Below are positions 1-50,922 of a stretch of DNA of 50,922 nucleotides, piece by piece; position 1 is the first letter of the stretch; each line of letters starts with the position of its first letter. Position numbers and translations under genes: made by a program. This stretch comes from Escherichia phage AV106. Under the pieces are notes generated by a model. The model ran no database searches. It saw nothing but the letters and a program-made list of their open reading frames with translations, and was not told where the DNA came from. The DNA is taken from the sequence record OR352937.1; one strand, given 5' to 3'.

Positions 1-10
1 ACAAAAAGTG

Positions 11-427
11 CTATTTCGTTAAATCGTATATTGCCAGCTTGAATTGCTCAAATCCGTATGCGACGGCAGAGAATCCTCCGCGATCCCGAACCTTTTTGAG
101 AAACTCCCTTTGCTTATCGCTGACTGGTGATGCCTTTCCTTTGCCGGACTTATTAACCCGCTTTAGTTCGATAGCTGCAAACGGGTAGCGTGAGTTTATA
201 CCAATCAGAATAACAAAGTCTGACACGCCTTTGAGTAATCCAGCCTGTTCATCCCTTAGCGCCGACGTTATTGTTTTTTCACCTTCATTAACTGTGTGCC
301 AAAATAGAAGCTGAGGAAAATTGTATTTCAACCAGGATACGCAATCTACTTGATGAGCGTCCTCCTTTCTCGTGTCGCTAGGATCTCGCTCGTAAAACTC
401 TAAGTAATCGCCTTTGTCTGTAATCAT
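11..427 (-). CDS. VRR-NUC-type nuclease (PD-(D/E)xK fold)
   Basis: 138 aa; GVSDFVILIG...AAIELKRVN resembles the VRR-NUC D...ExK core; 4-nt overlap with the helicase ORF; stop codon lies inside a dyad motif copy. Confidence 0.55.
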   Translation of the reverse strand: MITDKGDYLEFYERDPSDTRKEDAHQVDCVSWLKYNFPQLLFWHTVNEGEKTITSALRDEQAGLLKGVSDFVILIGINSRYPFAAIELKRVNKSGKGKASPVSDKQREFLKKVRDRGGFSAVAYGFEQFKLAIYDLTK

Positions 428-2442
428 TCCGGGATATCCTCCATACCGAAGTCTTTGCGTGAAATAATATCTTCTTTCTTCTGGTTGCGTCTATGAGTAA
501 CACGTACCGGATGCGCTATATGATGAGAGTATTGCACGATCTTGATAGCGTTCTTCATTCCGATAAAGTAGCGACGCATTTTAGGATCTGACACGTGAGG
601 TAATACTCCTTTCGTTTTCCATAGCGTACCGCAGATCTTAGAGTCTGACTCAGGGAAGAACTTTTCATACGCCTTAAACTCATCACCCTCATCGTTAATA
701 AGCGTGTATTTGTATATCACACCTTTTTGGTTTTTGGTTAACGTAACCTCAAAATTCTTGACCTCGTACCAGTCATTCTTAGTGTACGCCTTACCGGATA
801 ACTTAAGGTTAGGATCGACAAGAGAAACATCGCAACAGCGACAGACTCGGGCCACAACATCATTCTCGGCACCGCACCCTTTAACAAGAATTTTCCCGGT
901 ACGTTCATCAACTTGGTCCTCGCAAATCTGAGAAGTCCAGAAATGATCGCAGCGTTCACCGTCGATAACGTTAACGCAACGGCGAGCATAGAAGCTATTT
1001 ACGCAACCACATTTAGGACACGTTTTCGGGTCTTTTCCGTTCTCGAATCGCTTCTGAAACTGAGCCTGCTCAAGTATAGGGTCAAAATAAAGCTGCCCCA
1101 ACTCGTCCATCGTACCAGCAAAATCCCATACCAGATGATCTTGCTTAACCATTCCTTCAGCAACCTGCCAGGATTTAAGAAGTCGCATACCCCTACCCAA
1201 AAGCTGAATCAGCAAGGTAAGAGATCCTATCTTGCGAAGTATTACACTAAAATCCCAATTTGGAACGTTAACGCCAGTAGTTAGCGCCATGACCTGAAAG
1301 GTATATTTAATTTTCCCAGCCCTCACATCATCAAGAATCTTCTTGCGCGTTTTAGTGTCTGTGTCGCCAGTAATAATTGCATATGTGCTTCCTGGTGGTA
1401 GTGCCGCAGCCGCCTCTTTGCAGTGACGCACCCCGGCGCATGTAATCAGAACTGCGTTACGCTCTTCAGCCTTTTTGGCAACCATTTGCATGATTCGCTG
1501 GGTAAGAGATTTATCATGAAGGATCTCATCTTCCATTGCCTTCATATCTTTCTCTGTGAAGTCCTGCACCCCATCCTCGCTTGATGCCTTAAATTTATCA
1601 AGATCGTAGTGAACTCCGTCCGTCGAGCCGAATATAGTCGGAACGACTGAGCCAAACTCAATAAGGTAGTTGGTGTCTATATCAGTAACGCGCTCACGCC
1701 AGAAGCCTAACGCCTTTGGATTCTCAACAAGAATAGGAACTACACCCCTAAATTCAGATCCAGTCATACCAAATATTCTAAGATCGTGACCGTGAACCTC
1801 TTTACAGCGTCGCATCATTTCCATGATTACGATCGTGTACTGACTGCGCTTAGTTCCAAGAAGAGGCTTTCCATCATTACCAATCAGAGGAGTATCACCG
1901 TCCATGATAATTTTCCCTTTCTCTCCCCGCATCTGTTCCATTGTTTCCTTTCCGTCTATGGCTTGCGCAAGGTCTTCCCAATCCACCTGGTGACATTCAT
2001 CTATCCCGATTACGTGAGGGACAAAATCAGCCAACTCATTATTTAAACCATTTGCAACAGTGCCCTCAGAGCCTACCACGATCGGGAAGTAGCAAGACTT
2101 GATTCCAAGTGACGCTGAGAATATAGAGTTAGTCACTCCGAAATTGTCGATCTCTTCACTATCCTGATCGACAATTTCACCCTGGCGTGCCAGCACAAGC
2201 ATTTTCAAGCCCATTTTTTGACACTGCTTTGCAACCATAGCAAAAATGATGGTCTTACCCGCCGATACTGACGCTTTAACAAAGAATGGATGCTCATAAT
2301 TTGATAGGCGTTTTGCGATCTCAGCATAAGCAACAACCTGGTACGGATACGGAACTACCTCACCAACAGTGAATCGTTCTTGAGTGCGTTTTATATAGTC
2401 CTCGCCAAGTAATGCGATTTGCTTTTTGATGTTAATTGTCAC
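424..2442 (-). CDS. SF2 DNA helicase (DECH box) with C-terminal Cys-rich zinc-ribbon-like region
   Basis: 672 aa; Walker A-like SAGKT, GIDECHQ (DExH box); C-terminal CPKCGC...CxxxxxxxxC cluster; GTG start. Confidence 0.7.
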   Translation of the reverse strand: MTINIKKQIALLGEDYIKRTQERFTVGEVVPYPYQVVAYAEIAKRLSNYEHPFFVKASVSAGKTIIFAMVAKQCQKMGLKMLVLARQGEIVDQDSEEIDNFGVTNSIFSASLGIKSCYFPIVVGSEGTVANGLNNELADFVPHVIGIDECHQVDWEDLAQAIDGKETMEQMRGEKGKIIMDGDTPLIGNDGKPLLGTKRSQYTIVIMEMMRRCKEVHGHDLRIFGMTGSEFRGVVPILVENPKALGFWRERVTDIDTNYLIEFGSVVPTIFGSTDGVHYDLDKFKASSEDGVQDFTEKDMKAMEDEILHDKSLTQRIMQMVAKKAEERNAVLITCAGVRHCKEAAAALPPGSTYAIITGDTDTKTRKKILDDVRAGKIKYTFQVMALTTGVNVPNWDFSVILRKIGSLTLLIQLLGRGMRLLKSWQVAEGMVKQDHLVWDFAGTMDELGQLYFDPILEQAQFQKRFENGKDPKTCPKCGCVNSFYARRCVNVIDGERCDHFWTSQICEDQVDERTGKILVKGCGAENDVVARVCRCCDVSLVDPNLKLSGKAYTKNDWYEVKNFEVTLTKNQKGVIYKYTLINDEGDEFKAYEKFFPESDSKICGTLWKTKGVLPHVSDPKMRRYFIGMKNAIKIVQYSHHIAHPVRVTHRRNQKKEDIISRKDFGMEDIPE

Positions 2443-2480
2443 GGCTATTTAATCCTTTAAATCGTTGTATCGTTTACGAT

Positions 2481-2525
2481 ATAATACACGGCATACAGTA
2501 AACGTTTTTAGCAAAAAGTGCTACA
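2481..2525 (-). promoter_or_regulatory. Dyad-motif promoter upstream of the helicase gene
   Basis: Minus strand: TAGCA-N5-TGCTA, then 22 bp, then TATTAT in the loop of hairpin CGTTTAC...GTAAACG. Confidence 0.5.
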
Positions 2526-2536
2526 GGAGAATTAAT

Positions 2537-2989
2537 ATGAATATGAAACGTATCGCAGAGTCTACTGGTGAAATCGATAAACGTCACATCAATGGTAACA
2601 ACGGAACACGACGCGGTAAAGATAAAAAGCCTCGCCAGCGCTGCGGATTTTATATCCATAAAGAAGAAACGCGCGCAGGACTGAGAGCGCGATTGGATGC
2701 TCTTATTGAATATTATGGTGGTCCGGCGGCTTGCGCAAAGGCTCTGAAAGTTAGCAACCAGACGGTTCAAGGGTGGAAGGATCGAAATATGATTTCCTGG
2801 CAAGGCGCTGAAGCGGCGCATCGCGCTTATCGCCGACAGGGTTGCAAAGGATTTCGGGCCGCATGGCTGCGATTCGATCTGAAGTTTGATGGGAACGGCA
2901 AGTGCCTTGAGAAGCGCTGCAAAAACAAGAAGTTTATGCGGGTCGTGAAGAAGGAAGATATTGGAACGACAAATAGCATTTTTAGTTAA
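2537..2989 (+). CDS. HTH DNA-binding protein (Cro/YdaS-like), candidate regulator
   Basis: Start moved to ATG after RBS AGGAGA; GGPAACAKALKVSNQTVQGWKDRNMIS looks like a helix-turn-helix; basic C-terminus; followed by a strong terminator. Confidence 0.4.
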   Translation: MNMKRIAESTGEIDKRHINGNNGTRRGKDKKPRQRCGFYIHKEETRAGLRARLDALIEYYGGPAACAKALKVSNQTVQGWKDRNMISWQGAEAAHRAYRRQGCKGFRAAWLRFDLKFDGNGKCLEKRCKNKKFMRVVKKEDIGTTNSIFS

Positions 2990-3016
2990 AACAAACGACG
3001 CGTAGCGGGTTAACAT
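2971..3016 (+). promoter_or_regulatory. Dyad-motif promoter for the primase gene, embedded in a terminator hairpin
   Basis: AATAGCATTTTTAGTTAAAAC, then 22 bp, then TAACAT in the loop of the 2997..3040 hairpin. Confidence 0.45.
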
Positions 3017-3040
3017 CCTTCTACGCGTTTTTTATTTTGG
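2997..3040 (+). terminator. Intrinsic terminator after the HTH gene
   Basis: Stem ACGCGTAG...CTACGCGT followed by TTTTTTATTTT. Confidence 0.6.
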
Positions 3041-3050
3041 AGATCTGGAA

Positions 3051-3986
3051 GTGAACGAAGAATTTATGATGTTTCAGAAAGAGGACGTTTTACCGTACAT
3101 GAAGGGGTTATGGCGCGAGGCTTTCCAATCAATCTGCGGATTGCCGAATGATGTTTTTAATAAGAAGCACCAACCCTGCCCAAACTGCGGCGGTAAAGAC
3201 CGCTTTCGCTGGACTGATAACCTGAACACCCCGGGCGACGGCGGCGCGATCTGCAACTCATGCGGTAACGACTCTGGTATTGGCTGGCTGATGAAATTAA
3301 CTGGCATGCCGTACAGCGAATGTATAAACATCCTGGGGAGATTTCTCGGCAAGGTTCCGCAGGAATACATTGTCAAGGCAAACAAGAAAGCGCGCCGAAC
3401 TCCGGTATCAGGTGTCAATGTCATGATGGCAGATCATAAGGCGGTAATGAAAGTTATGGAGCGTACAGAGAAGCGAGTAAACACACCTCTAAGTATTTTT
3501 GAGTCACTACCCACTGAATCATTCGACGTTGGCGTAAAGCGTCGAGAAGATGGCGGGGAGAGCGTATTTCACACTATCCCGTGTCAACTTGTGCATGAGG
3601 ATGGGCTTGATGGCGAGTTTTGCAATATTTTGATTATTGACGAGGAAGGAAGGGAGTCATTTTACGCTAAGAAATACACAAGTTGCTCGGTTGCCGTGAC
3701 TGGTAAAACTGAAAAGGCGATCTACTTATGCCTGAACTGGATTGATGCTCAGCATATTGCATTTCACACAAAGCAAGAGGTATGGGCCTGCTTCACTCCT
3801 GAAAACCTAGAAATGGTTGCGTACAGGTATAAAGGTGATCGAGAAGTAAGGGTGGCATGCGAACCTTCGGACAAGGAGACTTTATACATGGCAGACGACC
3901 GACAATTAAAAATAATCATCCCAAATCCGGGAGGATACCGCTCAGGAATGCAATCCAAATTATTCTCAGCAAGCGATCTACTCTAA
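3051..3986 (+). CDS. DNA primase-like protein (zinc-binding N-terminus)
   Basis: 311 aa; CPNCGGKDRFRW...CNSCG zinc-finger-like motif typical of phage/plasmid primases; GTG at 3051 or ATG at 3066. Confidence 0.55.
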   Translation: MNEEFMMFQKEDVLPYMKGLWREAFQSICGLPNDVFNKKHQPCPNCGGKDRFRWTDNLNTPGDGGAICNSCGNDSGIGWLMKLTGMPYSECINILGRFLGKVPQEYIVKANKKARRTPVSGVNVMMADHKAVMKVMERTEKRVNTPLSIFESLPTESFDVGVKRREDGGESVFHTIPCQLVHEDGLDGEFCNILIIDEEGRESFYAKKYTSCSVAVTGKTEKAIYLCLNWIDAQHIAFHTKQEVWACFTPENLEMVAYRYKGDREVRVACEPSDKETLYMADDRQLKIIIPNPGGYRSGMQSKLFSASDLL

Positions 3987-4008: not shown

Positions 4009-4014
4009 TGCCAG

Positions 4015-14614: not shown

Positions 14615-15345
14615 AATTTAAGATCCTTATGGCGAACGATTAAAACGGTATGATCCTGATACCATCCAGAATAAATATCCCTGCGAGATAGCTTGCCGAA
14701 GGCATGATGCAAGATCTGATTATCTCCCAGGTAAATCCCTGCGTGGTTCCATACCGGAACGTTTTGCCCTATCTGCATGATTACCATATCACCGAATGAA
14801 GGATTATTCTGATCTGGAATCTCAACGAAGCCGTCCTGCTTGTAATAATCCTGATAGAGATTAATTCCGTACTCAGGTTTCCACCATTCAAAATTCAATC
14901 GGCGATCGCGCAATTCTACTCCGTGCTCTTTGTGCCACGCCATAACAAGACCGTAACAGTCGAATGATCCTAATGACCACGGACGACCAATCAGAGGTAA
15001 TTTCTCTGGCTTCACAAATCGCATATCCCCTTCCGGCACGCTAACAATAATCCAGGTAACTTCCATCTCGTTGCACATGCACGTATCGTGAGCGCTTGGT
15101 AGAGTTGTAGCCCCCTCTCCTGTGTGGCTGTGAACAATTGCTATTGTTGTTGATTCCGCATGGTCCTCAATGCAAGCGTATTGTACGGAATCCATCATGA
15201 AATGATTCTCGGGATCACGATGCACATTATCAATGCGATGGTATTTTTGCACGCGGCCCTTTTGGGTTACTACCCCGCAGCATTCGCGGGGGTATTCTTC
15301 CTGAGCGTGAGTCATAATTTCAAGTTTAATTTTTGCACTAATCAT
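14611..15345 (-). CDS. Tail assembly protein (lambda K-like, MPN/JAMM plus NlpC/P60)
   Basis: Start moved to ATG behind RBS AGAGGA; JAMM-like HSHTGEGATTLPSAHD motif; C-terminal Cys/His peptidase-like region. Confidence 0.7.
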   Translation of the reverse strand: MISAKIKLEIMTHAQEEYPRECCGVVTQKGRVQKYHRIDNVHRDPENHFMMDSVQYACIEDHAESTTIAIVHSHTGEGATTLPSAHDTCMCNEMEVTWIIVSVPEGDMRFVKPEKLPLIGRPWSLGSFDCYGLVMAWHKEHGVELRDRRLNFEWWKPEYGINLYQDYYKQDGFVEIPDQNNPSFGDMVIMQIGQNVPVWNHAGIYLGDNQILHHAFGKLSRRDIYSGWYQDHTVLIVRHKDLKL

Positions 15346-20107: not shown

Positions 20108-20189
20108 GATATTTCTCCTGATTGGTTAATGGCACTTTTTGTTAAAAGAGAATAGTGCAAACTTGATACGATGATTTTACAGAAATGAA

Positions 20190-23839: not shown

Positions 23840-23930
23840 GATTACTTCTCCTTAGTTAATAAAAAAGCCGTGATTATGTTCACAGCTTCAATAATAGCAC
23901 TTTTTGTTAAAGCGTCAAAGTGTTTTTGTG

Positions 23931-28703: not shown

Positions 28704-30272
28704 TTACCGCTTAACCATCCCGGCTAGTCGCTTCATTCGCTCGATAGGATCGTCAATTGTCAGTAGTTCAATGTTAGCCGCATCCATGAAGTTATCGACA
28801 ATATCATCATGCGGGTGAGTGTCATCGTAAGTGAAGGCGCTATGTTCTGCGATGATTTCCGCAAGCATAGGGTGCTCTTCTGGAAGAACCACGCGACCAG
28901 CCTTAATGACTGGCTGAGCATCCATCGCTCGGGTAACTTTATCCTTGTTACGCTGCAATGGAGTGATAGAGATCGGAGTCTTCTTCCTGAGATTCTGGAT
29001 TAAGCCCGTACCGCTTGCTTTGTCTTCCACGTAGATTTTACGAAGTACCCCCATTGATTTATTGTGCCTCCATGCCTGATTGACGAAAGCTGTAAATTGC
29101 CTCTCCATATCCGGCGCTTCCCACTTTCCGCGAATGCCGTCGATAAAGTAAACCTTATCATTCTTCTTGCCCCACAAACAAAATACCGTGTAGTCGTTTA
29201 GCTCACCTGTCTTCTGAGCGGTATCGGCAGTGATGAATCGGTAATCATATTTACCCGGATCTGGCTCGTCAGCGTCAAGACTGCTGCCGTAATAAGTCCA
29301 CCACTCTGAGTTAAACACGGAGCCACCCAGCGCGATCGGTTTCTGCTGATACTGAGAATCAAAGGTATACTGATCTGCTTCTCGTAACGCTAACAGGTCG
29401 TGAACGCTTTCCTTGCTGGGCCAAAAAGAGTAATGCTTAACGCCATCCAATTCTACATACTCAGACGATAAAACATCACGCTCAAAGTAAGGCTGCAACC
29501 AATCAGGAAGTGTCTTTCCGTATTCTTCCGTCACCAGCGCCGGTATTGAGATTTGGTCAAACTCAATACCCATCCCGCCATTCATCATGAACCATGTTGA
29601 ATCCTGAGCATGTAGTCGTTGCTGAATTGCAATAATAGGCGTCTCGTTATGCATGCGACGGGATCGAATGGTGTTTTTCAATAGCATGTGTGTACGCTCA
29701 CGCTTAACCTTTGAGAACATATCATCAGGCTTGTCGATATCGTCGAGCATTACCATACCTGAGAATCCCGGCGTCATGTAGCCACCACGCGAACCAGTAA
29801 TACGACCGCCAGCCGCTGCGGATATCAACTCAAACCAAACCTTTCCATCTTCGTTAAGAACCTGCATCTCCTCGTCTTTCGATGTGCCGAACTTGCAAGG
29901 CCATAGCTCTTGAAATTCGTTGCTACTGATAATCTCACGGACGCGCTTACTGTTACGCTTAACCAAGCTGTCAGCAAACGACACGTTAAGGTTTCGCACC
30001 TTCTTACACTTGAGCATTGCGTAAACAGGAAGGTGAATTGAGAACACTTCAGTTTTACCGGAACCTGGCGTGACGTTAAAGATTGTATTCCCTCGTCGGC
30101 CTGCAATAATTTCCTCCACTTCGTGACATAGGTAAAGGTGATGCCAGTTAGGCTGGAACTGCTGAGCCTGCATAAGCTGGAACCAGATCCGAATCATTTT
30201 TTCGAAATTGGCCTCGCTCATTTTCTTGATCGCTAACTTCTGCGTTGCGTTAAGGTCTTCCCATTGAATCAT
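28704..30272 (-). CDS. Terminase large subunit
   Basis: Start moved to second ATG behind RBS GGGAGA; Walker A-like TPGSGKT; conserved nuclease-domain acidic residues in the C-terminal half. Confidence 0.85.
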   Translation of the reverse strand: MIQWEDLNATQKLAIKKMSEANFEKMIRIWFQLMQAQQFQPNWHHLYLCHEVEEIIAGRRGNTIFNVTPGSGKTEVFSIHLPVYAMLKCKKVRNLNVSFADSLVKRNSKRVREIISSNEFQELWPCKFGTSKDEEMQVLNEDGKVWFELISAAAGGRITGSRGGYMTPGFSGMVMLDDIDKPDDMFSKVKRERTHMLLKNTIRSRRMHNETPIIAIQQRLHAQDSTWFMMNGGMGIEFDQISIPALVTEEYGKTLPDWLQPYFERDVLSSEYVELDGVKHYSFWPSKESVHDLLALREADQYTFDSQYQQKPIALGGSVFNSEWWTYYGSSLDADEPDPGKYDYRFITADTAQKTGELNDYTVFCLWGKKNDKVYFIDGIRGKWEAPDMERQFTAFVNQAWRHNKSMGVLRKIYVEDKASGTGLIQNLRKKTPISITPLQRNKDKVTRAMDAQPVIKAGRVVLPEEHPMLAEIIAEHSAFTYDDTHPHDDIVDNFMDAANIELLTIDDPIERMKRLAGMVKR

Positions 30273-30311
30273 GATTAAGTCTCCCATGCGGGCGCTCGCG
30301 CGCCCCTAACG

Positions 30312-30836
30312 TTAAAGCATATCAAGAATGCTGTTTACCGCCTCTTTCATCGCATCCTCAGTAGTGGCGACTACTGTCGATGCGGAAGCTGACGAGTTTT
30401 CGATATTGATTGAGGTTGGCTTATCGATTCCGAGATCCTTACCGATAAAGGAGGCATTAATAACACCGTTGGCGGCAAGCTGGAATTTTTGCTCATTGAT
30501 TACCGATTCCACAAACTCCATAACCTCGCTGTATTCTTCCTCTCGCTTCCACTTAATGATCGCGGCCTCGCTTGCACCGATGAATAGTCGGTATCCGGTC
30601 CAGGTGAAGACGCGCGGCTTATGAACTAGCGATTCATAAACGCCACCCTGAAAGCTGGCTGATTCTGACGCCTTGATTGCGTTGTCCTCAGCCCATTCGA
30701 AATACTTAACTGACAGATCGAATAGTTGCTCAGGCGTCATTGCCCGGTTTTTAGCAAGAACAGTGCCGAACTTTTTCTTGTATAGCTCTTTGAAATTGCC
30801 TCCCTGGACTACGGGGGCGTTCTTAGGTTCACTCAT
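30312..30836 (-). CDS. Terminase small subunit
   Basis: Start moved to ATG behind RBS AAAGAGGATGG; directly upstream of the large terminase gene; preceded by a dyad motif and a terminator. Confidence 0.5.
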   Translation of the reverse strand: MSEPKNAPVVQGGNFKELYKKKFGTVLAKNRAMTPEQLFDLSVKYFEWAEDNAIKASESASFQGGVYESLVHKPRVFTWTGYRLFIGASEAAIIKWKREEEYSEVMEFVESVINEQKFQLAANGVINASFIGKDLGIDKPTSINIENSSASASTVVATTEDAMKEAVNSILDML

Positions 30837-30888
30837 AAATCCATCCTCTTTGTTTAACATTTAGTGCTATTTTACCATATTGCAGGCA

Positions 30889-32703: not shown

Positions 32704-33270
32704 GTTGATGACCGTAGCGGCTATGTGCTGAGCGGTAATTTCTGGATGACCTTCGACAGAGAAGAAATCACACTCCTGATAACCATTAACCCCGATCATA
32801 TCTTCCAGGTAAATATAATCACGACTGTCGTTGTCAAAGTTGCAGCCTTTGCGGTGGATTCGGCATAGCTTGACCTGGATATCACCTTCAATCATCTGCA
32901 ATACCTCATCTTTGAATCCACCATCAGTAAATACTGACAGAGAATATGACTCTTTGACCTTGCTTTCCGCTCGCATACCGAAGAATCGATTTCCGAACTG
33001 TGGCTTGATGACTTCCTCGCTAATCCAGATCATAAACTGGCGAGGGCTTTTACCGTTCAGGATTGACGCTGGCTCTTCTTTGTAACGACGATCCTCATAC
33101 AAGAACATGAAATACTCGTAGTTAGTCTCACCCAGGATTGCCCGAGCAATCTCAAACATTGGTTCTTTGAAGCTGCGCAAAGCTACATGATCGTAAGTGT
33201 CAGCCAGGATGCATCCGATAGTGTCCTTGCCTGCTCCAGGGGCGCCGTTTAAAATGATAGCTGTTTTCAT
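32698..33270 (-). CDS. Deoxynucleoside monophosphate kinase (T4 gp1-like)
   Basis: 190 aa; P-loop NGAPGAGKDT; ILNGKSPRQFMIWISEE resembles T4 dNMP kinase YLNGKSPIKGVFVFDDE. Confidence 0.65.
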   Translation of the reverse strand: MKTAIILNGAPGAGKDTIGCILADTYDHVALRSFKEPMFEIARAILGETNYEYFMFLYEDRRYKEEPASILNGKSPRQFMIWISEEVIKPQFGNRFFGMRAESKVKESYSLSVFTDGGFKDEVLQMIEGDIQVKLCRIHRKGCNFDNDSRDYIYLEDMIGVNGYQECDFFSVEGHPEITAQHIAATVINK

Positions 33271-33271
33271 A

Positions 33272-33382
33272 TCAGTATCTCCCTAAAAATAATTTTGCCA
33301 TATTGATAATAGTGTGATTGATGATTAGCAGGATGATAACCGTCAATGCCGGATGTGCTGCAATAAATTCGTATAGGTTCAT
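33272..33382 (-). CDS. Hypothetical small hydrophobic peptide (36 aa, absent from the ORF track)
   Basis: ATGA overlap with the HAD gene stop; translates MNLYEFIAAHPALTVIILLIINHTIINMAKLFLGRY; its stop abuts the kinase start. Confidence 0.3.
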   Translation of the reverse strand: MNLYEFIAAHPALTVIILLIINHTIINMAKLFLGRY

Positions 33383-33912
33383 TTCTCTACCCCGTGCGAT
33401 TTTAAATGATCGTGAACGTTGTCGCCATAGTCAACTACAGCATATGTGGTTATTCCAAGCGACCGGAATAATGGAATAATTTGCGGTGAATCATCCCAAG
33501 CCGCGAGGATGTTTTCAATACCGATCGCTCGCACAGCTTCCTCTTTCATCACTGTGTCTTTCCGGTTGTCTGTGTGCGGTCGCATGACTAAGTAATCATA
33601 TCGCGCACCGTGATGCTTAAGCCACAACTCAGATGCGTAACGAACCTCATCACTTCGCCCGGTTAAAACTATTACGTGATACCCAGCGGCAAACATAGAG
33701 TTCATCACCTCAATCGTGCTCTGGATGGGGTTATCAAATATTGCGGCTCGATTAAACTCAGACCAGCTTTCAGTCAAGTGCAAATCCTTTGTTGGCAACA
33801 GGTGAAGGCGCTTTGATCCATCACTCAGTGTTCCGTCAAAGTCAAAGATTGCGACGCGGCGCGGACCGAGAAACAGGTTGATAGTTTGACCCCAAATTGT
33901 AATTTTATCCAT
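33379..33912 (-). CDS. HAD-superfamily phosphatase (nucleotidase-like)
   Basis: 177 aa; motif I FDFDGT near the N-terminus and downstream acidic motifs typical of HAD hydrolases. Confidence 0.6.
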   Translation of the reverse strand: MDKITIWGQTINLFLGPRRVAIFDFDGTLSDGSKRLHLLPTKDLHLTESWSEFNRAAIFDNPIQSTIEVMNSMFAAGYHVIVLTGRSDEVRYASELWLKHHGARYDYLVMRPHTDNRKDTVMKEEAVRAIGIENILAAWDDSPQIIPLFRSLGITTYAVVDYGDNVHDHLKSHGVEK

Positions 33913-33952: not shown

Positions 33953-33998
33953 ATTCTATCAAATGCCCTTGAGCAAGTTTTAGCAATTAGTGCTATTA
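33953..33998 (-). promoter_or_regulatory. Dyad-motif promoter
   Basis: AATAGCACTAATTGCTAAAAC, 22 bp, TAGAAT (preceded by TGa) in the loop of AAGGGCAT...ATGCCCTT; upstream of the HAD gene. Confidence 0.55.
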
Positions 33999-38449: not shown

Positions 38450-38495
38450 CTATAGCAAGATACCCCGATCCGTTTTTAACAATTCGTGCTATTTG
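38450..38495 (-). promoter_or_regulatory. Dyad-motif promoter
   Basis: AATAGCACGAATTGTTAAAAAC, 22 bp, TATAGT (preceded by TGc) in the loop of GGGGTA...TACCCC. Confidence 0.55.
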
Positions 38496-38956
38496 GTAAG
38501 ATACTTCACGTTACTACCAGCAACCTCATTCCAGCCGTCATCAAAGAACACGCTGTAGCATGTTTCTGAGCGCTGTCGAATCTTCGATACGGTCCTCCAC
38601 ACTTTACGACCTGAGTAACCAGTCAGCACACGCATCCCTGGCAACAACTCACCAGACTTTCTCGCCTTAATGGTCACATCAGAATCAAGATCGAAAGACT
38701 CAAGATAGACCGGGTTAATCATATCGCACATGCGGCGCTCTTGCTCATCTTCACAATCGCAGCCATTGTTCGCCTTGATAGCTCCAATGAAGCAACCCAG
38801 CTTTTCAGTAAGTGAGCCTGCGCGGTATGAGTTGATATCAATAACCGTGTAGTGGCTGTACATGTGCCAGTGCGATCCGGTTTTGTGCTCAAACGCGAAG
38901 AATGACATTTCGCCATCAATCTCATCTTTAGCCAGGAATACGGTAATGGTTGTCAT
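38489..38956 (-). CDS. Hypothetical protein
   Basis: 155 aa; several Cys (CDCED...C). Confidence 0.4.
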   Translation of the reverse strand: MTTITVFLAKDEIDGEMSFFAFEHKTGSHWHMYSHYTVIDINSYRAGSLTEKLGCFIGAIKANNGCDCEDEQERRMCDMINPVYLESFDLDSDVTIKARKSGELLPGMRVLTGYSGRKVWRTVSKIRQRSETCYSVFFDDGWNEVAGSNVKYLTK

Positions 38957-38958
38957 GA

Positions 38959-39153
38959 TTATGCCTCAGCAAAGTAAGTGTTAAATCCTTTGAGTTTGTA
39001 GTCGCTACCTACGCGCACCACGTTCCAGGCAAGTCCCGAGTGATATGCAACCATATCCTCAAGGTCGATCGTGATTTCGGTTCCTTTCTTGAACAGACCC
39101 TTTTCATGAGTTGAGTCGCGCTGAACAACCACTACGTCAATTTGCGTTTCCAT
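38959..39153 (-). CDS. Hypothetical small protein
   Basis: Start moved to ATG (METQIDVV) behind RBS GAGGAAAAGAAG; the track's N-terminal extension covers the promoter. Confidence 0.4.
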   Translation of the reverse strand: METQIDVVVVQRDSTHEKGLFKKGTEITIDLEDMVAYHSGLAWNVVRVGSDYKLKGFNTYFAEA

Positions 39154-39185
39154 CTTCTTTTCCTCTGTATCGTGTCGATGAGAAG

Positions 39186-39231
39186 ATAATACCCGATCCG
39201 CTCGACCGGGCTTTAACAAAAAGTGCTATTC
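39186..39231 (-). promoter_or_regulatory. Dyad-motif promoter
   Basis: AATAGCACTTTTTGTTAAAGC, 22 bp, TATTAT; upstream of ORF 38959..39153. Confidence 0.55.
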
Positions 39232-39486
39232 CATCAAAGTGAAGCAGCGAATTTTATTTGGCTTGAATAGGAATAGCTGGATGCCTTGCACCTTACCAAG
39301 ACTGATCATCTCTACGCCAAACTGTTTACGCACATACCGGACCAGCTCATCGGCTGGCGAACTCATCTGTAGTCCGAGGTGATGGAAACCGACAAACCCG
39401 TATGTTTCGGGGTTAAGCTGGAATGCCTCACCTGGATTGAGTTGCATCAATACACCTTTCAGGGAGTCATGCTTAATTTTGCTCAT
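39226..39486 (-). CDS. Hypothetical protein
   Basis: 86 aa; RBS GAGGAGAAG. Confidence 0.4.
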   Translation of the reverse strand: MSKIKHDSLKGVLMQLNPGEAFQLNPETYGFVGFHHLGLQMSSPADELVRYVRKQFGVEMISLGKVQGIQLFLFKPNKIRCFTLME

Positions 39487-39488
39487 GA

Positions 39489-40064
39489 TTACTTCTCCTC
39501 ATCCAGTAAATGTGAGCGGAATTGCTCGACCAGCTTATTGAGATCGGACACCGAGATATTGCTACCTTCAAAATCCCTCAAATCGATTTTGAACGCCTCA
39601 ACCTTCGCATTGAACACGTCGGCTATGCTCTTTCGCTTCCTACCTCTCTTGCCCTGTTTAGCTTCGCCTATGGCCTTCTCTGCTTCCTCGCCTTCGAGTT
39701 CGGTTATGAATATCGTCACCCCGTCAACCTGATCGCGGTTGATTCGCACAGATACGGCCTTATTGTGCGCCTTGAGCATGTGGCGCTTGATGATATTGGA
39801 CACGTACGACGCGGTGAGTCTCTCGAGCAACCAGGCTGATCGAGATGTGTACTCGTTAACGACTGCCTCATCGATCTGGTCATCGTTAAGTTCCACGCCC
39901 TGAGTAGCCTTTACAATCTCGGCCTGCTCATTGACGTACACTTCAACCATTTGCTTTCCAGTGACTGAGAAGTCATTCCCTGATTGGTGGATTTCAATCG
40001 CCTTTCGAATATAGTCCGGCAGGTTGAGTTCAAATTCTGTCACTTCTTTAAGCTGAGTTTTCAC
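39489..40064 (-). CDS. Hypothetical protein, first gene of the minus-strand early array
   Basis: 191 aa; GTG start with RBS GAGGT; C-terminal basic patch KQGKRGRKRK; adjacent to the repeat-rich control region. Confidence 0.4.
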   Translation of the reverse strand: MKTQLKEVTEFELNLPDYIRKAIEIHQSGNDFSVTGKQMVEVYVNEQAEIVKATQGVELNDDQIDEAVVNEYTSRSAWLLERLTASYVSNIIKRHMLKAHNKAVSVRINRDQVDGVTIFITELEGEEAEKAIGEAKQGKRGRKRKSIADVFNAKVEAFKIDLRDFEGSNISVSDLNKLVEQFRSHLLDEEK

Positions 40065-40111
40065 TTGTCTATACCTCGTTGTCTATGGGTGTAACTTTCA
40101 ACTTCGAAAAA

Positions 40112-40141
40112 CATGTTACAGCTACAACGTCAGGCGCGTCA
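40112..40141 (-). promoter_or_regulatory. Candidate sigma70-like promoter for the first minus-strand early gene
   Basis: Minus strand TTGACG, 18-bp spacer, TAACAT, about 40 nt upstream of the GTG start at 40064. Confidence 0.35.
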
Positions 40142-40348
40142 ATGTCTATAGCTGCATTTTTTATTTTTGTAACCAGTGCAACCGATGCAACCGACTTTTT
40201 CTATAAAAGTAAGCACATCTATTTATGCGCGCGGAATAGTATGTTTTTTATACTATGCATCACGAAATATATGCCACCATCAAAAAATGCGGTTGCACCT
40301 ATTACGCCGATTACATACCAATATATAATATAATAAATAAATAAATAT

Positions 40349-40427
40349 ATATTATCTATCTTATTATTATATATAGATATTTTATTATATATAGGCCCAT
40401 CGACTCGCTGGCCATTTTGTAACACCC
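40349..40427. repeat. AT-rich control module, copy B
   Basis: Same two anchor sequences (13 bp and 14 bp identical) with the same 52-bp spacing as copy A. Confidence 0.6.
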
Positions 40428-40677
40428 CTGATGGTATACAACTATTACGACAATTACAACTACCGCATAGACGAATAGCACGTTTTGCTAAAAATGGAGA
40501 TGACTACAAGGCGAACCGGGTAACACTAGATCCTCCCTCTCACAATCATTGCATTCCAAGCAACAATCACATCAACAGTTGCACATCATGCAACAATCAC
40601 ATTTCATCATTCGGGATCAATCAGGATCGCAATTATTCCAGATATTCCATTGCTGGTGGAATAATGAGCAACTATTG

Positions 40678-40724
40678 GAATAGCATTTTTTGCTAACGAC
40701 TTGGTCAGGCTGGCAGTGTATGAT
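40678..40724 (+). promoter_or_regulatory. Dyad-motif promoter for the C5-methyltransferase gene
   Basis: AATAGCATTTTTTGCTAACG, 23 bp, TATGAT, then leader CATCAACCAATCAGTAGGAGA. Confidence 0.5.
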
Positions 40725-40757
40725 TCATCACATCAACCAATCAGTAGGAGATTTGCA

Positions 40758-41462
40758 ATGAAATTAATCTGGTCGCTATTCGACGGTTCCGGTCTTGCTG
40801 GTCATGAACTGGCTAAGCAAGGTCACAAGGTGATGTGCTTCAACTTTGACGGAGCCGATCACGGGGATTATGCAAAGTACAATGCCCGGGTGGAGCATCC
40901 GAACATTGAGTATGTGAACGTGTTCATTGACGCAGCGTTTGAGCGTGATGCTATCGCTGGCGTGTATGGCAAGCCGGATTTCATTATGGCCTTCCCGCCG
41001 TGCACTGACCTGGCTGTTAGTGGTGCCGCTCACTTCGCAAGAAAGCGTGAACGCGATCCGTTATTCCAGGAGAAGGCTGTTGCCACCGCCCGGATTACTG
41101 CAAATATTGGCGACGCCCTGGGCGTGACTTACATCATTGAGAATCCGGTTAGCGTCCTGTCATCTGCCTGGAGAAAACCAAATCACTCCTTCAATCCCTG
41201 GGAGTATGGCGGCTATCTTCCTGAGAATGACTCACACCCCTGGTTCCCTATGTATATTGCGCCGCGCGATGCTTACCCGAAGAAAACTTGTCTGTGGACC
41301 TCTGACGATTTTGTCATGCCTGAAAGAAAACCTGTAAGCCTACCTGACGGGTACTCTGCACAGCACAGTAAGCTAGGCGGCAAATCTGCCAAAACTAAGT
41401 TGATACGATCCCTGTCGCCGCGTGGATTTTTCAAAGCGATCGCAAATAGCACTTTTTGTTAA
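40758..41462 (+). CDS. DNA (cytosine-5) methyltransferase, short Dcm-like
   Basis: Start moved to ATG behind a dyad-motif promoter and leader; motif I LFDGSGLAG (FxGxG), motif IV FPPC (catalytic Pro-Cys), motif VI IENPV (ENV-like). Confidence 0.55.
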   Translation: MKLIWSLFDGSGLAGHELAKQGHKVMCFNFDGADHGDYAKYNARVEHPNIEYVNVFIDAAFERDAIAGVYGKPDFIMAFPPCTDLAVSGAAHFARKRERDPLFQEKAVATARITANIGDALGVTYIIENPVSVLSSAWRKPNHSFNPWEYGGYLPENDSHPWFPMYIAPRDAYPKKTCLWTSDDFVMPERKPVSLPDGYSAQHSKLGGKSAKTKLIRSLSPRGFFKAIANSTFC

Positions 41463-41489
41463 AACTCGATCGGTGTGATTTGGCATAAT
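41445..41489 (+). promoter_or_regulatory. Dyad-motif promoter
   Basis: AATAGCACTTTTTGTTAAAAC, 22 bp, CATAAT; overlaps the 3' end of the methyltransferase ORF. Confidence 0.55.
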
Positions 41490-41522
41490 TACCTCATCGA
41501 AACGAGATTGAGGAAAAACAAA

Positions 41523-41708
41523 ATGGCACGTCGCATCACTAAAGACCTTAAAGTTCTGAACAAAGAAAACGTAGTTAAAATTCTGGTTATTTGGGGGTAC
41601 AACGAAGAATCAGCAAAGCAGAAGGTAGAAGCGGGTTACGATCTGGCTGTCAAAGCGATGCCTAACGACGACGCAAAAGGCATTGCAAACTATGTATCAT
41701 TCTTTTAA
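41523..41708 (+). CDS. Hypothetical small protein
   Basis: Start moved to ATG (MARRITKDL) after dyad motif, CATAAT and RBS GAGGAAAAA. Confidence 0.4.
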   Translation: MARRITKDLKVLNKENVVKILVIWGYNEESAKQKVEAGYDLAVKAMPNDDAKGIANYVSFF

Positions 41709-41723
41709 TTAACGGGCTAACAA

Positions 41724-41909
41724 ATGAAAACGAAATTAGTGCATAAATCAGAAATCAAGATAGGCGACACTGTGATTCACAACGGAGAGCTTAGAACTGT
41801 TGGTAAGGAGTCAATAACCAAAGATGAATTTATGGGGTTATTGTTGTTCGGCGACTCTTATCGCTTGGGTTACAAAATGGTTGAGCTTGTTGAGGAAGTA
41901 AAATTCTAA
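41724..41909 (+). CDS. Hypothetical small protein
   Basis: 61 aa. Confidence 0.35.
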   Translation: MKTKLVHKSEIKIGDTVIHNGELRTVGKESITKDEFMGLLLFGDSYRLGYKMVELVEEVKF

Positions 41910-41953
41910 ATAGCACGAATTGCTAAACGCCCCGAGGGGAATCGGGGTATAGT
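41908..41953 (+). promoter_or_regulatory. Dyad-motif promoter
   Basis: AATAGCACGAATTGCTAAACG, 22 bp, TATAGT in the loop of CCCCGA...TCGGGG, then leader CATCAACCAATCAGGAGA. Confidence 0.55.
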
Positions 41954-41984
41954 GAACACATCAACCAATCAGGAGAATCGCCAG

Positions 41985-42215
41985 ATGGCAATCAAACATC
42001 CCGGATTAAAGAAAGCAATCCAGCGAGCAAATGACGAGGGATTTATTGTATATCGCACACATTACGGTCACATGGGTGGACTTAAAGAGCATCATACAAA
42101 GGTTGAGCTTGTGGACTTGTGGGAGGATTACGATACATTCCAGTACATCGCCACGTCTGACGTAGAGGCGCAAGTGAAATACATCAATGACACTATTGAT
42201 AGCTTCAGAGGGTAA
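41985..42215 (+). CDS. Hypothetical protein
   Basis: Start moved to ATG (MAIKHPGL) behind leader AACCAATCAGGAGAATCGCCAG; dyad motif and TATAGT upstream. Confidence 0.45.
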   Translation: MAIKHPGLKKAIQRANDEGFIVYRTHYGHMGGLKEHHTKVELVDLWEDYDTFQYIATSDVEAQVKYINDTIDSFRG

Positions 42216-42219
42216 TTAT

Positions 42220-43856: not shown

Positions 43857-44273
43857 ATGAAATCCATCAAACTGAAATGTACTCACGCAGATAAAATCAC
43901 AGGATTTGAAGTAAACAACATATACAAAGGTCGTGAGCGCTATGATGGCACTCGCGAAGTAAAATTAAAATGCGGGAAGTATTTAAAACTTGAAAAGCAT
44001 GATGAATTACAGATTCACGGATCTGATGAAATTTTCTTCGCGAAGTTCACTGAGTTGAAAACAAAGACGCTCAAGTGCACCGGGCTTGACCATCGCAACC
44101 CAATGAAAAAATCATTCAAAGTTGGCAAGCGTTACCAGGTTGAAAGCGGTCGCGCTCTCGGTGGCGTAGCTGGTTACATCTTTGATGAAGATGGTTGTCG
44201 CTGGACCTTATTTCGCGAAGAGGTTGGTTTTAGTATCGCAGACGGCACAACCTTTGAGGCCAAATACTTATAA
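43857..44273 (+). CDS. Hypothetical protein
   Basis: 138 aa; leader AACCAATCAGGAATTAACGAA; dyad motif and TAAAGT upstream. Confidence 0.45.
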   Translation: MKSIKLKCTHADKITGFEVNNIYKGRERYDGTREVKLKCGKYLKLEKHDELQIHGSDEIFFAKFTELKTKTLKCTGLDHRNPMKKSFKVGKRYQVESGRALGGVAGYIFDEDGCRWTLFREEVGFSIADGTTFEAKYL

Positions 44274-44275
44274 CC

Positions 44276-44320
44276 AATAGCACTTTTTGCAAAACGCGTG
44301 TACCATTGGCGGTGTATCAT
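44276..44320 (+). promoter_or_regulatory. Dyad-motif promoter
   Basis: AATAGCACTTTTTGCAAAACG, 22 bp, TATCAT in the loop of CGGTGTA...TACACCG. Confidence 0.55.
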
Positions 44321-45918: not shown

Positions 45919-45922
45919 TAAT

Positions 45923-47852: not shown

Positions 47853-47881
47853 GAAATACCCTCTTTGTTTTCTATGTGGTC

Positions 47882-47924
47882 AATATACCCGAATCCCTTC
47901 GGGAATTTTTGGCGATTAGTGCGA
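47882..47924 (-). promoter_or_regulatory. Degenerate dyad-motif promoter upstream of small ORF 47676..47852
   Basis: GATCGCACTAATCGCCAAAAA, 22 bp, TATATT; hairpin CCCGAA...TTCGGG. Confidence 0.4.
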
Positions 47925-49067
47925 TCCTGTCATTTCTGGACGATAGATGAATCGACCGATTTCACCAAACTGTTTATCGTAAACGATTACCGCCGCCTGG
48001 CGATATGAGCGCCACCCGCCTCGCGCTGCGTATGCATCTTTCGCGCCTAACTGCCCGTGAACCTCATCAATACCTAACGAGTGCTCAGTGATTGTCTGAT
48101 GATGCCAGTGTCCGCTATGCGTGTACACGTATTTGCTTTCACCAAAATCTGCGCGGAAATCTGCTGCCATAGCTGCGAGTCGAGTCTCTGCTTTTTTCAT
48201 CGTGTGACCGTGAGTATATCCCAGCAAAGTATTTCCCCAGCGAGTCTTATGTAGAACCATAGGGCTTACGTCAACGAATACTCTTGGCTCGTCTTCATAG
48301 TATGCAGCCATTGCGGCGCGCAACCAAATCATCCCGGCCTGGTCGTGGTTTCCTTCGACAACCTGAACTTCGACCTCTTTGTGTTTAGTCAGCATTTTGT
48401 CGATAGCTCGTCGCACCGATCGAATAGCCACATGCACCAATTTCGCATATCGTGAATCCTGATCCAGAACGTGACCACTTGCCGGGGTAACAGCATCAAG
48501 ACCGTCTGAGTGAAGGAAGTCGCCGCCGATTAACAGAACAGCCTTCTCTGCGTTCGGGGCAATATCGATCGCGTAGTTAAAGAAGTCATTCAGCACTTTT
48601 TCCGCTACGTCTGTAGAGTAGTTCTCTCCGCATTCATGCTTGTGAGCAAGCGCGCCAATGTGAAGATCGAACACCGGGTAGAGTGCTAGCTTGCCAATAG
48701 CGGTTGTAAGCCCTTGCGAGGTGAGTAGCTCAGTTGGTTTTGCTCGCGGCAAGTCTTCACAGAATGCAATACGCGCTGCTTCCATCATTGCAGCAATCTT
48801 CTCTCGGTCCTGATCGGTCTTAACCCATCGCACTACCTCGGTCCCATCGCCGCGAATCATCGTTGATGTGCCTTTTACCATGAATCCTTCCGGTACGTTC
48901 TTAGCAACATGCTCGTTACCGTGGAAGTGACCTTCTTTTGCAAGTTTGGCGTGACGCGCTTCAACTGTGCGGATGTGCATACCGTACTTTTCCGCGATCT
49001 CGCGAAGTGTAAGGCCGCTCATGCGCTCTTCGATAAGTTGCTCGGTAGTGATTTTAGCTTGTGACAT
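47916..49067 (-). CDS. Calcineurin-like metallophosphoesterase with N-terminal HTH domain
   Basis: 383 aa; N-terminal LTLREIAEKYGMHIRTVEARHAKL (HTH-like); phosphoesterase motifs GDFLHSD, GNHD, GHWHH. Confidence 0.6.
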   Translation of the reverse strand: MSQAKITTEQLIEERMSGLTLREIAEKYGMHIRTVEARHAKLAKEGHFHGNEHVAKNVPEGFMVKGTSTMIRGDGTEVVRWVKTDQDREKIAAMMEAARIAFCEDLPRAKPTELLTSQGLTTAIGKLALYPVFDLHIGALAHKHECGENYSTDVAEKVLNDFFNYAIDIAPNAEKAVLLIGGDFLHSDGLDAVTPASGHVLDQDSRYAKLVHVAIRSVRRAIDKMLTKHKEVEVQVVEGNHDQAGMIWLRAAMAAYYEDEPRVFVDVSPMVLHKTRWGNTLLGYTHGHTMKKAETRLAAMAADFRADFGESKYVYTHSGHWHHQTITEHSLGIDEVHGQLGAKDAYAARGGWRSYRQAAVIVYDKQFGEIGRFIYRPEMTGSH

Positions 49068-49145
49068 ATTTTAATCCTTACATGATAATGAAATACATTA
49101 CTGAAAATGAAATTAGCGGTGTTAATACTACAGCAAAATAAAGAT

Positions 49146-49547
49146 TCATGCCACAGCCTTTAACCAGAATCCTAGATCTGACGATTTAAACTCAACCAGC
49201 TTTCCGTCAACCTCAAGCATCATACTGTTTCTACCAGGTGAGTAATAACCTATATGCAACTCCTGATCGATCCCTATGGTACACAGCACGTTTGCGAAGT
49301 CAGGAGGCAACCAATCAGAGAAAGGTATTTTCTTAACCTGCTTCTTTCCGATCCATATGGTCTGGTAATCGTCTTCGTTAATGTTTAAGCCTGGAAGGCT
49401 TGTTGTTCTTTGCTGCTTTTCGTTCTCTCTCAATTCTCTTTCCCTCTTCACGATAAAACTCAAGTGACGGAGTTGCTGGCACTCTATGCATTTTTCTCGG
49501 CATATCTTCCATAAATGAAATCTTGCCATTTGAGATAATGCTAACAT
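49146..49547 (-). CDS. Hypothetical protein (start uncertain)
   Basis: 133 aa in the track; overlaps ORF 49378..49650 in another frame and a dyad-like sequence lies inside the overlap. Confidence 0.3.
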   Translation of the reverse strand: MLALSQMARFHLWKICREKCIECQQLRHLSFIVKRERELRENEKQQRTTSLPGLNINEDDYQTIWIGKKQVKKIPFSDWLPPDFANVLCTIGIDQELHIGYYSPGRNSMMLEVDGKLVEFKSSDLGFWLKAVA

Positions 49548-49627
49548 CCTTTATATAGAAATATTTCGCTATTAGTGCTATATCGTCTGAGATTCCGCAT
49601 TCCTTCGCGTGCTCCCAAACCTCTCGT

Positions 49628-49837
49628 TTACCTTGTTTTTTTATCAGCATTGGTTAGTTTCTCCACGCTTTCAATAAAACACTCAACATCTTTGACTGAG
49701 CAGAGGTAATAAGCCATTTTAAGGAAGTTCATAGCAATATCCCAATCAAAGTTACCGCCTTTCTTGTCAGTGATATGAACAGCCATTTTTGCGGACTGTT
49801 GAGCGATATTGAAAAAGTTTGCGTTAATGCGTGCCAT
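49628..49837 (-). CDS. Hypothetical protein
   Basis: 69 aa; RBS GAGGAATAAGAAG; dyad motif and TATAGT upstream. Confidence 0.4.
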   Translation of the reverse strand: MARINANFFNIAQQSAKMAVHITDKKGGNFDWDIAMNFLKMAYYLCSVKDVECFIESVEKLTNADKKTR

Positions 49838-49869
49838 CTTCTTATTCCTCGTTTCGTTTTGATGAAATA

Positions 49870-49915
49870 ACTATACCCGACTTTCGCCGGGTAGTTTTAG
49901 CAATTAGTGCTGTAA
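49870..49915 (-). promoter_or_regulatory. Dyad-motif promoter
   Basis: TACAGCACTAATTGCTAAAAC, 22 bp, TATAGT in the loop of ACCCGG...CGGGT. Confidence 0.55.
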
Positions 49916-50155
49916 GATCGTGTCGGATTTAAGTTCTTCTACGTCTTTCTGAATGATTGAAGGCCAATGCTCGATGTGTTTATTCTTTATCTCATCGAAC
50001 GACATATCAAGAGAACTTGTAAACTCCCATAAATCGCAACCAATAACATCTTTAGTTAATCCGTTTCGCTCCATAATTTCGCAGCACGTAGCGCGATAAA
50101 GAAGCCATAACCCTTGATCAGTTAATTTAACAGGAACCATTTTTTCGCTCATCAT
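49904..50155 (-). CDS. Hypothetical protein
   Basis: 83 aa; ATGA overlap with the methyltransferase gene. Confidence 0.4.
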   Translation of the reverse strand: MMSEKMVPVKLTDQGLWLLYRATCCEIMERNGLTKDVIGCDLWEFTSSLDMSFDEIKNKHIEHWPSIIQKDVEELKSDTILQH

Positions 50156-50865
50156 ACTTTTCTCACCTTTGCTCGTTTGTTTTTAACGGAAGGACAAATA
50201 CTTGTGATTGGGATGTAGTGAGTCTGTTGCGTCTCACCTTCTTTAAGTTCGCGCATAATAAAAATAACCGAACCTTTGTTGTTGCCGTCTACGGCTTTTC
50301 CAGTTTCACCGGATATGAAAGCTAGACGACCGGATCGTGCGTATTCATTGCCGTCAATATCCTCAGTCAAATCAGCTTCAATCCAGATGATTTCAGCCGC
50401 GTGCTGTCGAGCCTCAGTAAACCACGCCGTCGAGTTATCGGCAGGTAAAAGAATATCGATCTGGTTGTTGTGCTCCATTTCCTCAATCGCTTTCTTGACG
50501 AATATATCAGGTCGACTGTAAGGAGGATTTAACCATACGTGCTTATTTTTACCCCACCAACGTTTTAAGCAGTTTGTTTCCTGGGAATAAAACTTCTCGC
50601 AAACTTTATTTTCTTCGCTTGCCGCAGCGTCGAGGTCATATTTTCCGTAGCGACCCTCAAGGTATGCGATAACCTCGCGTGGGGTTGACCATAAATCACG
50701 AACTGCGTCAGGTGTATTGGTTCCCTTGTATCGACGTCCTGAAATCTCTTTGCAGGTTGGCGTTTTCAATGCTTGATAATAAACTCCTGATGCTATTGCT
50801 TCGCGAGTGAATGAGCACCCAGTTTCTGCAAAGTCGATTGTTTCGATATCATTAAAGTCTTTCAT
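50152..50865 (-). CDS. DNA N6-adenine methyltransferase (Dam-like, NPPY motif)
   Basis: 237 aa; catalytic WLNPPYSR and upstream DLDAAAS AdoMet-binding-like motif; RBS GAGAGGA. Confidence 0.7.
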   Translation of the reverse strand: MKDFNDIETIDFAETGCSFTREAIASGVYYQALKTPTCKEISGRRYKGTNTPDAVRDLWSTPREVIAYLEGRYGKYDLDAAASEENKVCEKFYSQETNCLKRWWGKNKHVWLNPPYSRPDIFVKKAIEEMEHNNQIDILLPADNSTAWFTEARQHAAEIIWIEADLTEDIDGNEYARSGRLAFISGETGKAVDGNNKGSVIFIMRELKEGETQQTHYIPITSICPSVKNKRAKVRKV

Positions 50866-50922
50866 TTTTAATCCTCTCGTTTCGGTGAGATAATAATGCC
50901 AGATTCCATTCCGGCAGTTTTA

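Follow-up and report, generated by a model that had tools for sequence, protein, structure and literature searches.

The ends of the Escherichia phage AV106 sequence join within a conserved repeat upstream of dam that resembles a class II marbox

T1-like phages are the closest described systems for the sequence of Escherichia phage AV106 (OR352937.1), a stretch of 50,922 nucleotides that was analysed as a whole, is hereafter called the window, and has its two ends within a short repeat situated upstream of a gene for a DNA N6-adenine methyltransferase (dam). In phages of this type, packaging is initiated at a pac site and follows the headful mechanism, the DNA is terminally redundant and falls into three or four partly permuted classes, and genomes have no fixed ends, their orientation being set by convention to that of T1 (PMC11447400, PMC5238451, PMC7718038, PMC13164509). 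Additionally, a direct repeat with the consensus aaATAGCACnnnTTGnTAAAA has been described in this family. In TLS it is found in 18 intergenic copies, all of them directed along transcription and placed about 76 nt before start codons, and T1, Rtp and Rogue1 have also been reported to carry it. The authors of that study, who found almost no sigma-70 promoters, suggested that the repeat could act as a stoperator, an enhancer or a UP-like element, and left its function open (PMC11447400).

A second described element that is relevant for the comparison is the marbox of the E. coli activators MarA, SoxS and Rob, a non-palindromic site with the sequence 5′-gcannwwntgnnaaa-3′. The class II marboxes are in forward orientation and overlap the -35, and their centre is at some position from -36 to -55 (PMC12052159), and a 15-nt consensus, 5′-gcactaattgctaaa-3′, has been given for the element (PMC5684230). 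In the structure formed by Rob, RNA polymerase and micF, contacts of Rob with -47G and -45A have been observed (PMC9178005), and a site for RamA is centred at about -41 (PMC8811837).

By genome comparison, the window belongs to Tunavirus, the T1-like siphophages of the Drexlerviridae. Its first half is about 93% identical in nucleotide sequence to the Shigella phages pSf-2 and SH6, and its second half is 91-93% identical to DELF2, IME18 and XJA18; with T1 and other members of Tunavirus (pSf-2, SH6, Shfl1 and XJA18-XJ-2024) it shares the gene order around the circle, at nucleotide identities of about 90-93%. Colinearity with T1 (NC_005833) extends over the whole genome, in reverse orientation, and the alignment wraps once around the window (Table 1), the only gaps being three HNH genes of T1, host-range genes and the variable left-end region. 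The two ends of the window correspond to adjacent bases in T1, where position 38966 is window position 1 and position 38967 is window position 50922. The same continuity is observed in other phages. For instance, a synthetic 3-kb junction, made of the last 1500 and the first 1500 bases, was aligned along its whole length (100%), without being split, to internal segments of 58 phage records with differing start points (records being counted at a coverage of at least 80%). The best match, XJA18-XJ-2024, is 99.6% identical to the junction, with a span of 3000 nt for 3000 nt. Furthermore, the exact 60-nt junction is internal to a relative from IMG/VR (L012), and Tunavirus relatives show base-for-base conservation of the region between the VRR-NUC nuclease gene and dam. 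None of the phage records compared reached 99% identity over the genome.

As the ends are adjacent in T1 and their junction is contiguous in relatives, we consider it very probable that the window is one complete, unit-length Tunavirus genome, presented in linear form. Its ends mark an arbitrary linearisation point and are not the ends of virion DNA. An earlier note on this DNA, made from the letters alone, had proposed a linearised complete genome of about 50.9 kb, a proposal that is backed both by the colinearity with T1 and by the contiguity of the junction in relatives; this length falls inside the family range of 49-51.5 kb. The finding that the genome is complete is already known biology, as it is expected of any assembled T1-like genome.

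The window terminates in ...CCGGCAGTTTTA and starts with ACAAAAAGTGCTATTTCG, and their join produces TAACAAAAAGTGCTA (50919..50922 followed by 1..11), which bears out the claim of the earlier note that the joined ends restore a full copy of a motif. On the minus strand, the joined sequence is part of AAATAGCACTTTTTGTTAAAA (16..1 followed by 50922..50918), which matches the published T1-like 21-nt direct repeat at 21 of 21 positions and is identical to the TLS copies DR1, DR6, DR12, DR14 and DR16. Only one other exact copy of this 21-mer is present in the circle, at 41444 on the plus strand. A gap of 67 bp separates the VRR-NUC gene from dam and contains the junction. Both genes are complete and of the same length as their T1 counterparts (Table 1), and so neither edge gene is truncated, as had also been noted. 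The motif was found 54 nt upstream of the methyltransferase start at 50865, where about 55 bp had been estimated, and the hexamer CATTAT begins 19 nt after the junction 21-mer and 22 nt after TTGTTA; this offset is common to other copies and agrees with the 22-25 bp given before. Neither a direct terminal repeat nor a cohesive-end signature was found at the window ends, which share no terminal sequence of at least 8 nt, and no plausible open reading frame was found to span the junction.

Once joined, the ends restore the whole promoter cassette of dam, formed by the oriented repeat, a short GC hairpin, a TGn-extended -10, an A as predicted start about 7 nt further on, a Shine-Dalgarno sequence and the ATG, which occupies cassette position 74. 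The same arrangement of VRR-NUC, repeat, hairpin, -10 and dam is found in T1 at 38951..39024. The T1 segment orthologous to the hairpin (38973..39001) is annotated as a rho-independent terminator, and in more distant relatives the changes in its stem are compensatory (GCCGGA/TCCGGC in L013 and GTGCA/TGCGC in L044). The hairpin probably terminates the transcript of the upstream VRR-NUC gene.

The junction copy is one member of a large family. The sequence TAACANNNNNTGCTA was found, with no more than one mismatch, in 27 strand-hits against 3.3 expected, a number that none of 100 shuffles reached, and the circularised window contains 23 copies with no more than three mismatches from the 21-nt consensus, the junction copy having none. 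Cassette positions were defined through the ungapped alignment of these 23 copies, in which the conservation extends well downstream of the repeat: T38 is present in 14 of 23 and G39 in 20 of 23, and the -10 hexamer, at positions 41-46, shows T41 in 19, A42 in 21 and T46 in 18 of the 23 copies. An A is found at position 53 in 20 of the 23 window copies (and in 18 of 22 in T1), and the start codons of most copies lie at positions 73-87. This register is also conserved in T1, including the orthologous copy at 38951 before dam, and in 44 related dam loci, some of them from Klebsiella-type phages with a Dam that is only 62% identical. In contrast to the description of the repeat in TLS, the copies are seen here at a fixed distance of 19 nt from a TGn-extended -10 that is followed by an A start. 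Most cassettes have a hairpin of variable sequence, which lies in the spacer or brackets the -10, with a mean z of about -2.6 and many values between -4 and -5.5. Hairpins that end just before the T-rich -10 resemble terminators packed inside promoters, and those that enclose the -10 are without a U-tract. A scan of the window for canonical promoters (TTGACA-N16-18-TATAAT) revealed no enrichment, with 33 found against 35 expected, which agrees with the observation of the TLS authors.

The conserved bases of the repeat, GCAC...TTG.TAAA, coincide with the marbox GCAnnWWnTGnnAAA at all 11 specified positions. Exact matches to the marbox pattern amount to 18 in the linear window, in addition to the junction copy, against 0.94 expected, and none of 100 shuffles reached 18; two of the copies are identical to the published consensus over the full 15 nt (Table 1). 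Position and orientation are also those of a class II site, as these sequences are in forward orientation, overlap the -35 region and have their centre at about -40/-41 relative to the inferred start. In E. coli micF, the archetype of the class II promoters, the core GCACTGAATGTCAAA ends at 151 and the -10, TAGAAT, starts at 172, which leaves a gap of 20 nt, the same as in the phage cassette (core at 6-20 and -10 at 41-46); in fumC, whose -10 is ambiguous, the spacing is only approximately similar. In addition, GCAC is placed at about -47 to -44 from the inferred start, in agreement with the contacts described for Rob at micF, and in 161 kb of related loci we found 88 exact marbox cores, all of them in gene orientation. 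There are also differences with the class II promoters of the micF kind, as the sites studied here are phage-borne, reach about 19 per 51 kb, and occur together with an extended -10 and with a spacer that contains a hairpin.

On the basis of this match, we propose that the repeats, of which there are about 20 copies here and others across the Drexlerviridae, would be consensus class II marboxes, and that T1-like early and DNA-metabolism genes, dam among them, would be driven by extended -10 promoters that recruit Rob, MarA or SoxS, a proposal in which we place middling confidence. In such a model, a terminator hairpin would be packed into the spacer between marbox and -10, and RamA would be the activator recruited in Klebsiella. 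The match is one of sequence, and we consider real use of the copies by Rob, MarA or SoxS to be as likely as not. A search of the window with E. coli MarA (tblastn) found no homologue, the best E value being 7.6, and a search of the literature found no link between the T1-like repeats and the marbox, MarA, SoxS or Rob, which is not proof that none exists elsewhere. The restored motif itself is a published element, and the marbox reading is the only part of this work of specialist interest. If it were true, phage gene expression would be wired to the mar/sox/rob regulon of the host, with its roles in stress and antibiotic resistance, and replicating phage DNA might titrate the Rob, MarA and SoxS regulators; a notorious family of virulent coliphages would thus be linked to mar/sox/rob, with possible consequences for the interactions between phages and antibiotics. 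The match turns the function of the T1-like repeat, left open since the T1 and TLS genome papers, into the subject of a simple experiment.

A different function may be considered for the motif, which the earlier note had called a dyad: the repeat could be a palindromic operator, or one of the stoperators mentioned by the TLS authors (PMC11447400), bound by a dimeric regulator of the phage instead of by host factors. A candidate regulator would be, for instance, the Cro-like helix-turn-helix protein encoded at 2465..2989 (ST23 in T1), and a weak match to P22_Cro is indeed present in the window. In about half of the copies the arms TAGCA and TGCTA form a dyad of 5+5, one copy abuts the ribosome-binding site of the terminase small subunit gene (terS) with no -10, and others are antisense in the late region. 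Nevertheless, the conservation is asymmetric. G6 is present in 23 of 23 copies, with either of the pyrimidines C and T at its mirror position 16, and C9 (21 of 23) is not complementary to its mirror, T13 (20 of 23). Symmetric half-sites and indifference to orientation, which would be expected of a palindromic operator, were not found; the orientation strictly follows transcription, the register to the -10 is fixed, and all the conserved bases are those of the marbox consensus. We therefore regard the operator as doubtful. The motif family of the earlier note is real, and the repeat is an oriented upstream promoter element and an imperfect dyad rather than a true one.

Other readings of the repeat as a promoter element were rejected. 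If TTGNTA were a sigma-70 -35, the spacer to the -10 would measure 22 bp, an excess of about half a helical turn, and the canonical scan is not enriched. A sigma-54 promoter (TGGCAC-N5-TTGC) is not consistent with AG in the place of GG, with a spacing that is 2 bp short and with the conserved TGn-TAnnnT and A 20 nt downstream. The MotA box of T4 is centred at -30, and the position of the repeat is wrong for such a box.

Several copies of the repeat have particular locations. Those at 20127-20147 (+) and 23892-23912 (+) are antisense to late structural genes, in the gaps that follow the major tail and major head regions, and the former has a good extended -10 (TGaTACGAT); the equivalents of these copies are DR7 in TLS and the copies at 15088 and 18852 in T1. 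The antisense copies of the late operon may be antisense promoters. The copy at 30852-30872 (-), conserved in T1 (8360), is found 15 nt before the terS ATG (30836), abuts the ribosome-binding site and has no -10 at the usual offset. Additionally, a leader or ribosome-binding context of the type (C)AACCAATCAG(A)GGA is found repeatedly in front of small, unrelated early genes (Table 1).

Regarding packaging, headful packaging with terminal redundancy would be expected for this phage because its large and small terminase subunits are identical to those of T1 in 527 of 527 and 173 of 174 residues (100 and 99%), respectively. The suggestion of the earlier note that the genome is consistent with terminal redundancy or headful packaging is supported in this way, together with the literature on T1-like phages. 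The T1 record is annotated with a 2.8-kb terminal repeat from its position 1, and on the minus strand the T1 end and start (...GATGTGATT|GTTGCATGGTGTGCAAC...) have a conserved counterpart at window 40595|40594, 89.7% identical over 263 nt. Exactly at 40594|40595, six independent records (T1, JMPW1, JMPW2, phi2457T, Chapo and FCWL1) begin or end. By this homology with T1, we predict the pac-proximal end to be in the region of 40594 and packaging to proceed towards lower coordinates, and the window ends are about 40.6 kb along this direction from it. The earlier note had proposed that a pac-type site be looked for near terS; this gene is instead separated by about 9.7 kb from the pac region, or T1-type left end, which is in the divergent early intergenic region. 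In this respect the phage differs from P22, whose pac is inside the terS gene. There is also a likeness to the pac headful systems of the P22/Sf6 type, as TerS of the window has a P22 gp3 domain and the packaging of T1-like phages has been described as processive headful from pac, leading to redundancy and partial permutation (PMC11447400).

At the homologue of the left end there are two copies of ATGTGATTGTTGC, 30 bp apart, and the T1 record starts inside the first of them. About 200 bp away there is a block of 80 bp with 92% A+T (40310-40389). The palindrome (Table 1), the ATGTGATTGTTGC pair and the A+T block could belong to a pac site or to an origin.

The terminase would cut concatemers by pac-initiated headful packaging, yielding terminally redundant and partly permuted virion molecules. 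Reads from such molecules would tile a circle, and the assembly would close on itself because T1-type virion DNA is headful-cut, redundant and partly permuted. Some points weigh against this reading. Redundancy and permutation of the virion DNA of this phage are predicted from homology to T1. A headful of about 51-51.6 kb (48.8 + 2.8 kb in T1; 49.9 + about 1 kb in TLS) leaves about 0-0.7 kb of redundancy, which would be tight for a headful phage if the capsid has the capacity of those of T1 or TLS, as this rough estimate assumes. Finally, a cut made at random would land in one of the approximately 23 copies of the repeat only about 1% of the time, and the break point may reflect the behaviour of the assembler at a repeated 21-23-mer instead of pure chance.

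This last point leads to a different origin for the junction, in which the assembler would have joined two copies of the repeated 21-23-mer, producing a false closure and a window that is chimeric or lacks a segment. The break does lie inside an exact repeat of 23 nt that is also present, inverted, at 41444, and a cut within a repeat has a low a priori probability (about 1%). In contrast, the VRR-NUC and dam flanks are adjacent, with the same span of 3000 nt, in T1 and 58 relatives, all the T1 modules are present in order with no gaps other than the three HNH genes, the host-range genes and the left-end region, and the 50.9 kb of the window fits the size of the family. A false closure is therefore highly improbable. 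Even less can be said for the ends being the true ends of the virion DNA, through cos sites or fixed direct terminal repeats, with the restoration of the motif as a coincidence. Nothing specific favours it, beyond the fact that the break sits at a conserved regulatory repeat. The window ends have no terminal repeat and split a conserved promoter element, T1 and 58 other records carry the junction as contiguous internal sequence, the terminase is the pac/headful enzyme of T1, the T1-type left end maps to 40594, and T1-like phages are described as lacking cos ends (PMC7718038); hence, we give physical ends almost no weight. For annotation purposes, the T1 left end at 40594 could serve to re-orient the arbitrarily opened unit genome, and it would be wrong to annotate the dam promoter as truncated.

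Table 1. Coordinates of the features discussed in the text (window numbering unless otherwise indicated)
Feature	Position	Strand	Remarks
VRR-NUC nuclease gene, complete	11..427	-	138 amino acids; PF08774; same length as T1 ST21
DNA N6-adenine methyltransferase gene (Dam), complete	50152..50865	-	237 amino acids; PF05869, E 1.9e-68; same length as T1 ST20
Repeat positions 1-16 (AAATAGCACTTTTTGT)	1..16	-	Overlaps the VRR-NUC stop codon at 13..11
Repeat positions 17-21 (TAAAA)	50918..50922	-	Junction 50922|1 lies between repeat positions 16 and 17
Marbox-like 15-mer core, GCACTTTTTGTTAAAA-type	11..1 + 50922..50919	-	Spans the junction
Hairpin TGCCGGAatggaaTCTGGCA, followed by TTATTAT	50897..50916	-	Terminator-like; minimum free energy -9.9, z -2.2; between repeat and -10
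Extended -10, TGgCATTAT	50893..50901	-	TG at 50901..50900, hexamer CATTAT at 50898..50893; offset shared with other copies
Inferred transcription start, A	50886	-	7 nt after the -10; from column conservation
Shine-Dalgarno sequence, GAGAGGA	50872..50878	-	6 nt before the dam ATG (50865)
Terminase large subunit, TerL	28704..30287	-	527/527 identical to T1 TerL; Terminase_6C domain
Terminase small subunit, TerS (P22 gp3-like)	30312..30836	-	173/174 identical to T1; true start is Met9 of the listed open reading frame
Homologue of the T1 left end	40560..40608	-	Palindrome GTTGCAtgatgTGCAAC at 40594..40578; ATGTGATTGTTGC twice, at 40602..40590 and 40572..40560
Copies identical to gcactaattgctaaa (15/15)	33979-33993, 49896-49910	-	
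Further marbox-matching copy	41449-41463	+	
Cassettes with fixed-place hairpin	32703, 33998, 34518, 36153, 36879, 37440, 38494, 39231, 49915, 16	-	Both rows: z down to -5.5, covarying stems among paralogues and relatives
Cassettes with fixed-place hairpin	41444, 41908, 43775, 44275	+	As in the row above
Examples of the leader context	38494, 36153, 33998	-	5′ leaders of cassettes
Examples of the leader context	41908, 43775, 40678	+	5′ leaders of cassettes
Alignment of T1 1449-48675	38493-1 followed by 50922-42219		Whole-genome alignment

Apart from being in reverse orientation and opened at T1 38966|38967 instead of at the T1 left end, whose sequence is conserved, the window differs from T1 in some regions. 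Around the predicted left end, the early region (38493-42219, or 38.5-42.2 kb) is longer and distinct, with 3.7 kb against 1.6 kb in T1, and cannot be aligned with it except at the repeats. It includes a methylase-like open reading frame at 40701-41462 (+), of 253 amino acids, which has no Pfam match at 1e-3 and for which the annotation in relatives is DNA methylase or Dcm-like C5 methyltransferase. The C-terminus of the tail fibre has diverged in the window, and a search for the tail-fibre protein of 700 amino acids found no record of it. The three HNH endonuclease genes of T1 (ST63, ST15 and ST8) are all missing, and their flanks are almost seamless in the window, at 33270-33442, 47889-47931 and 44271-44276.

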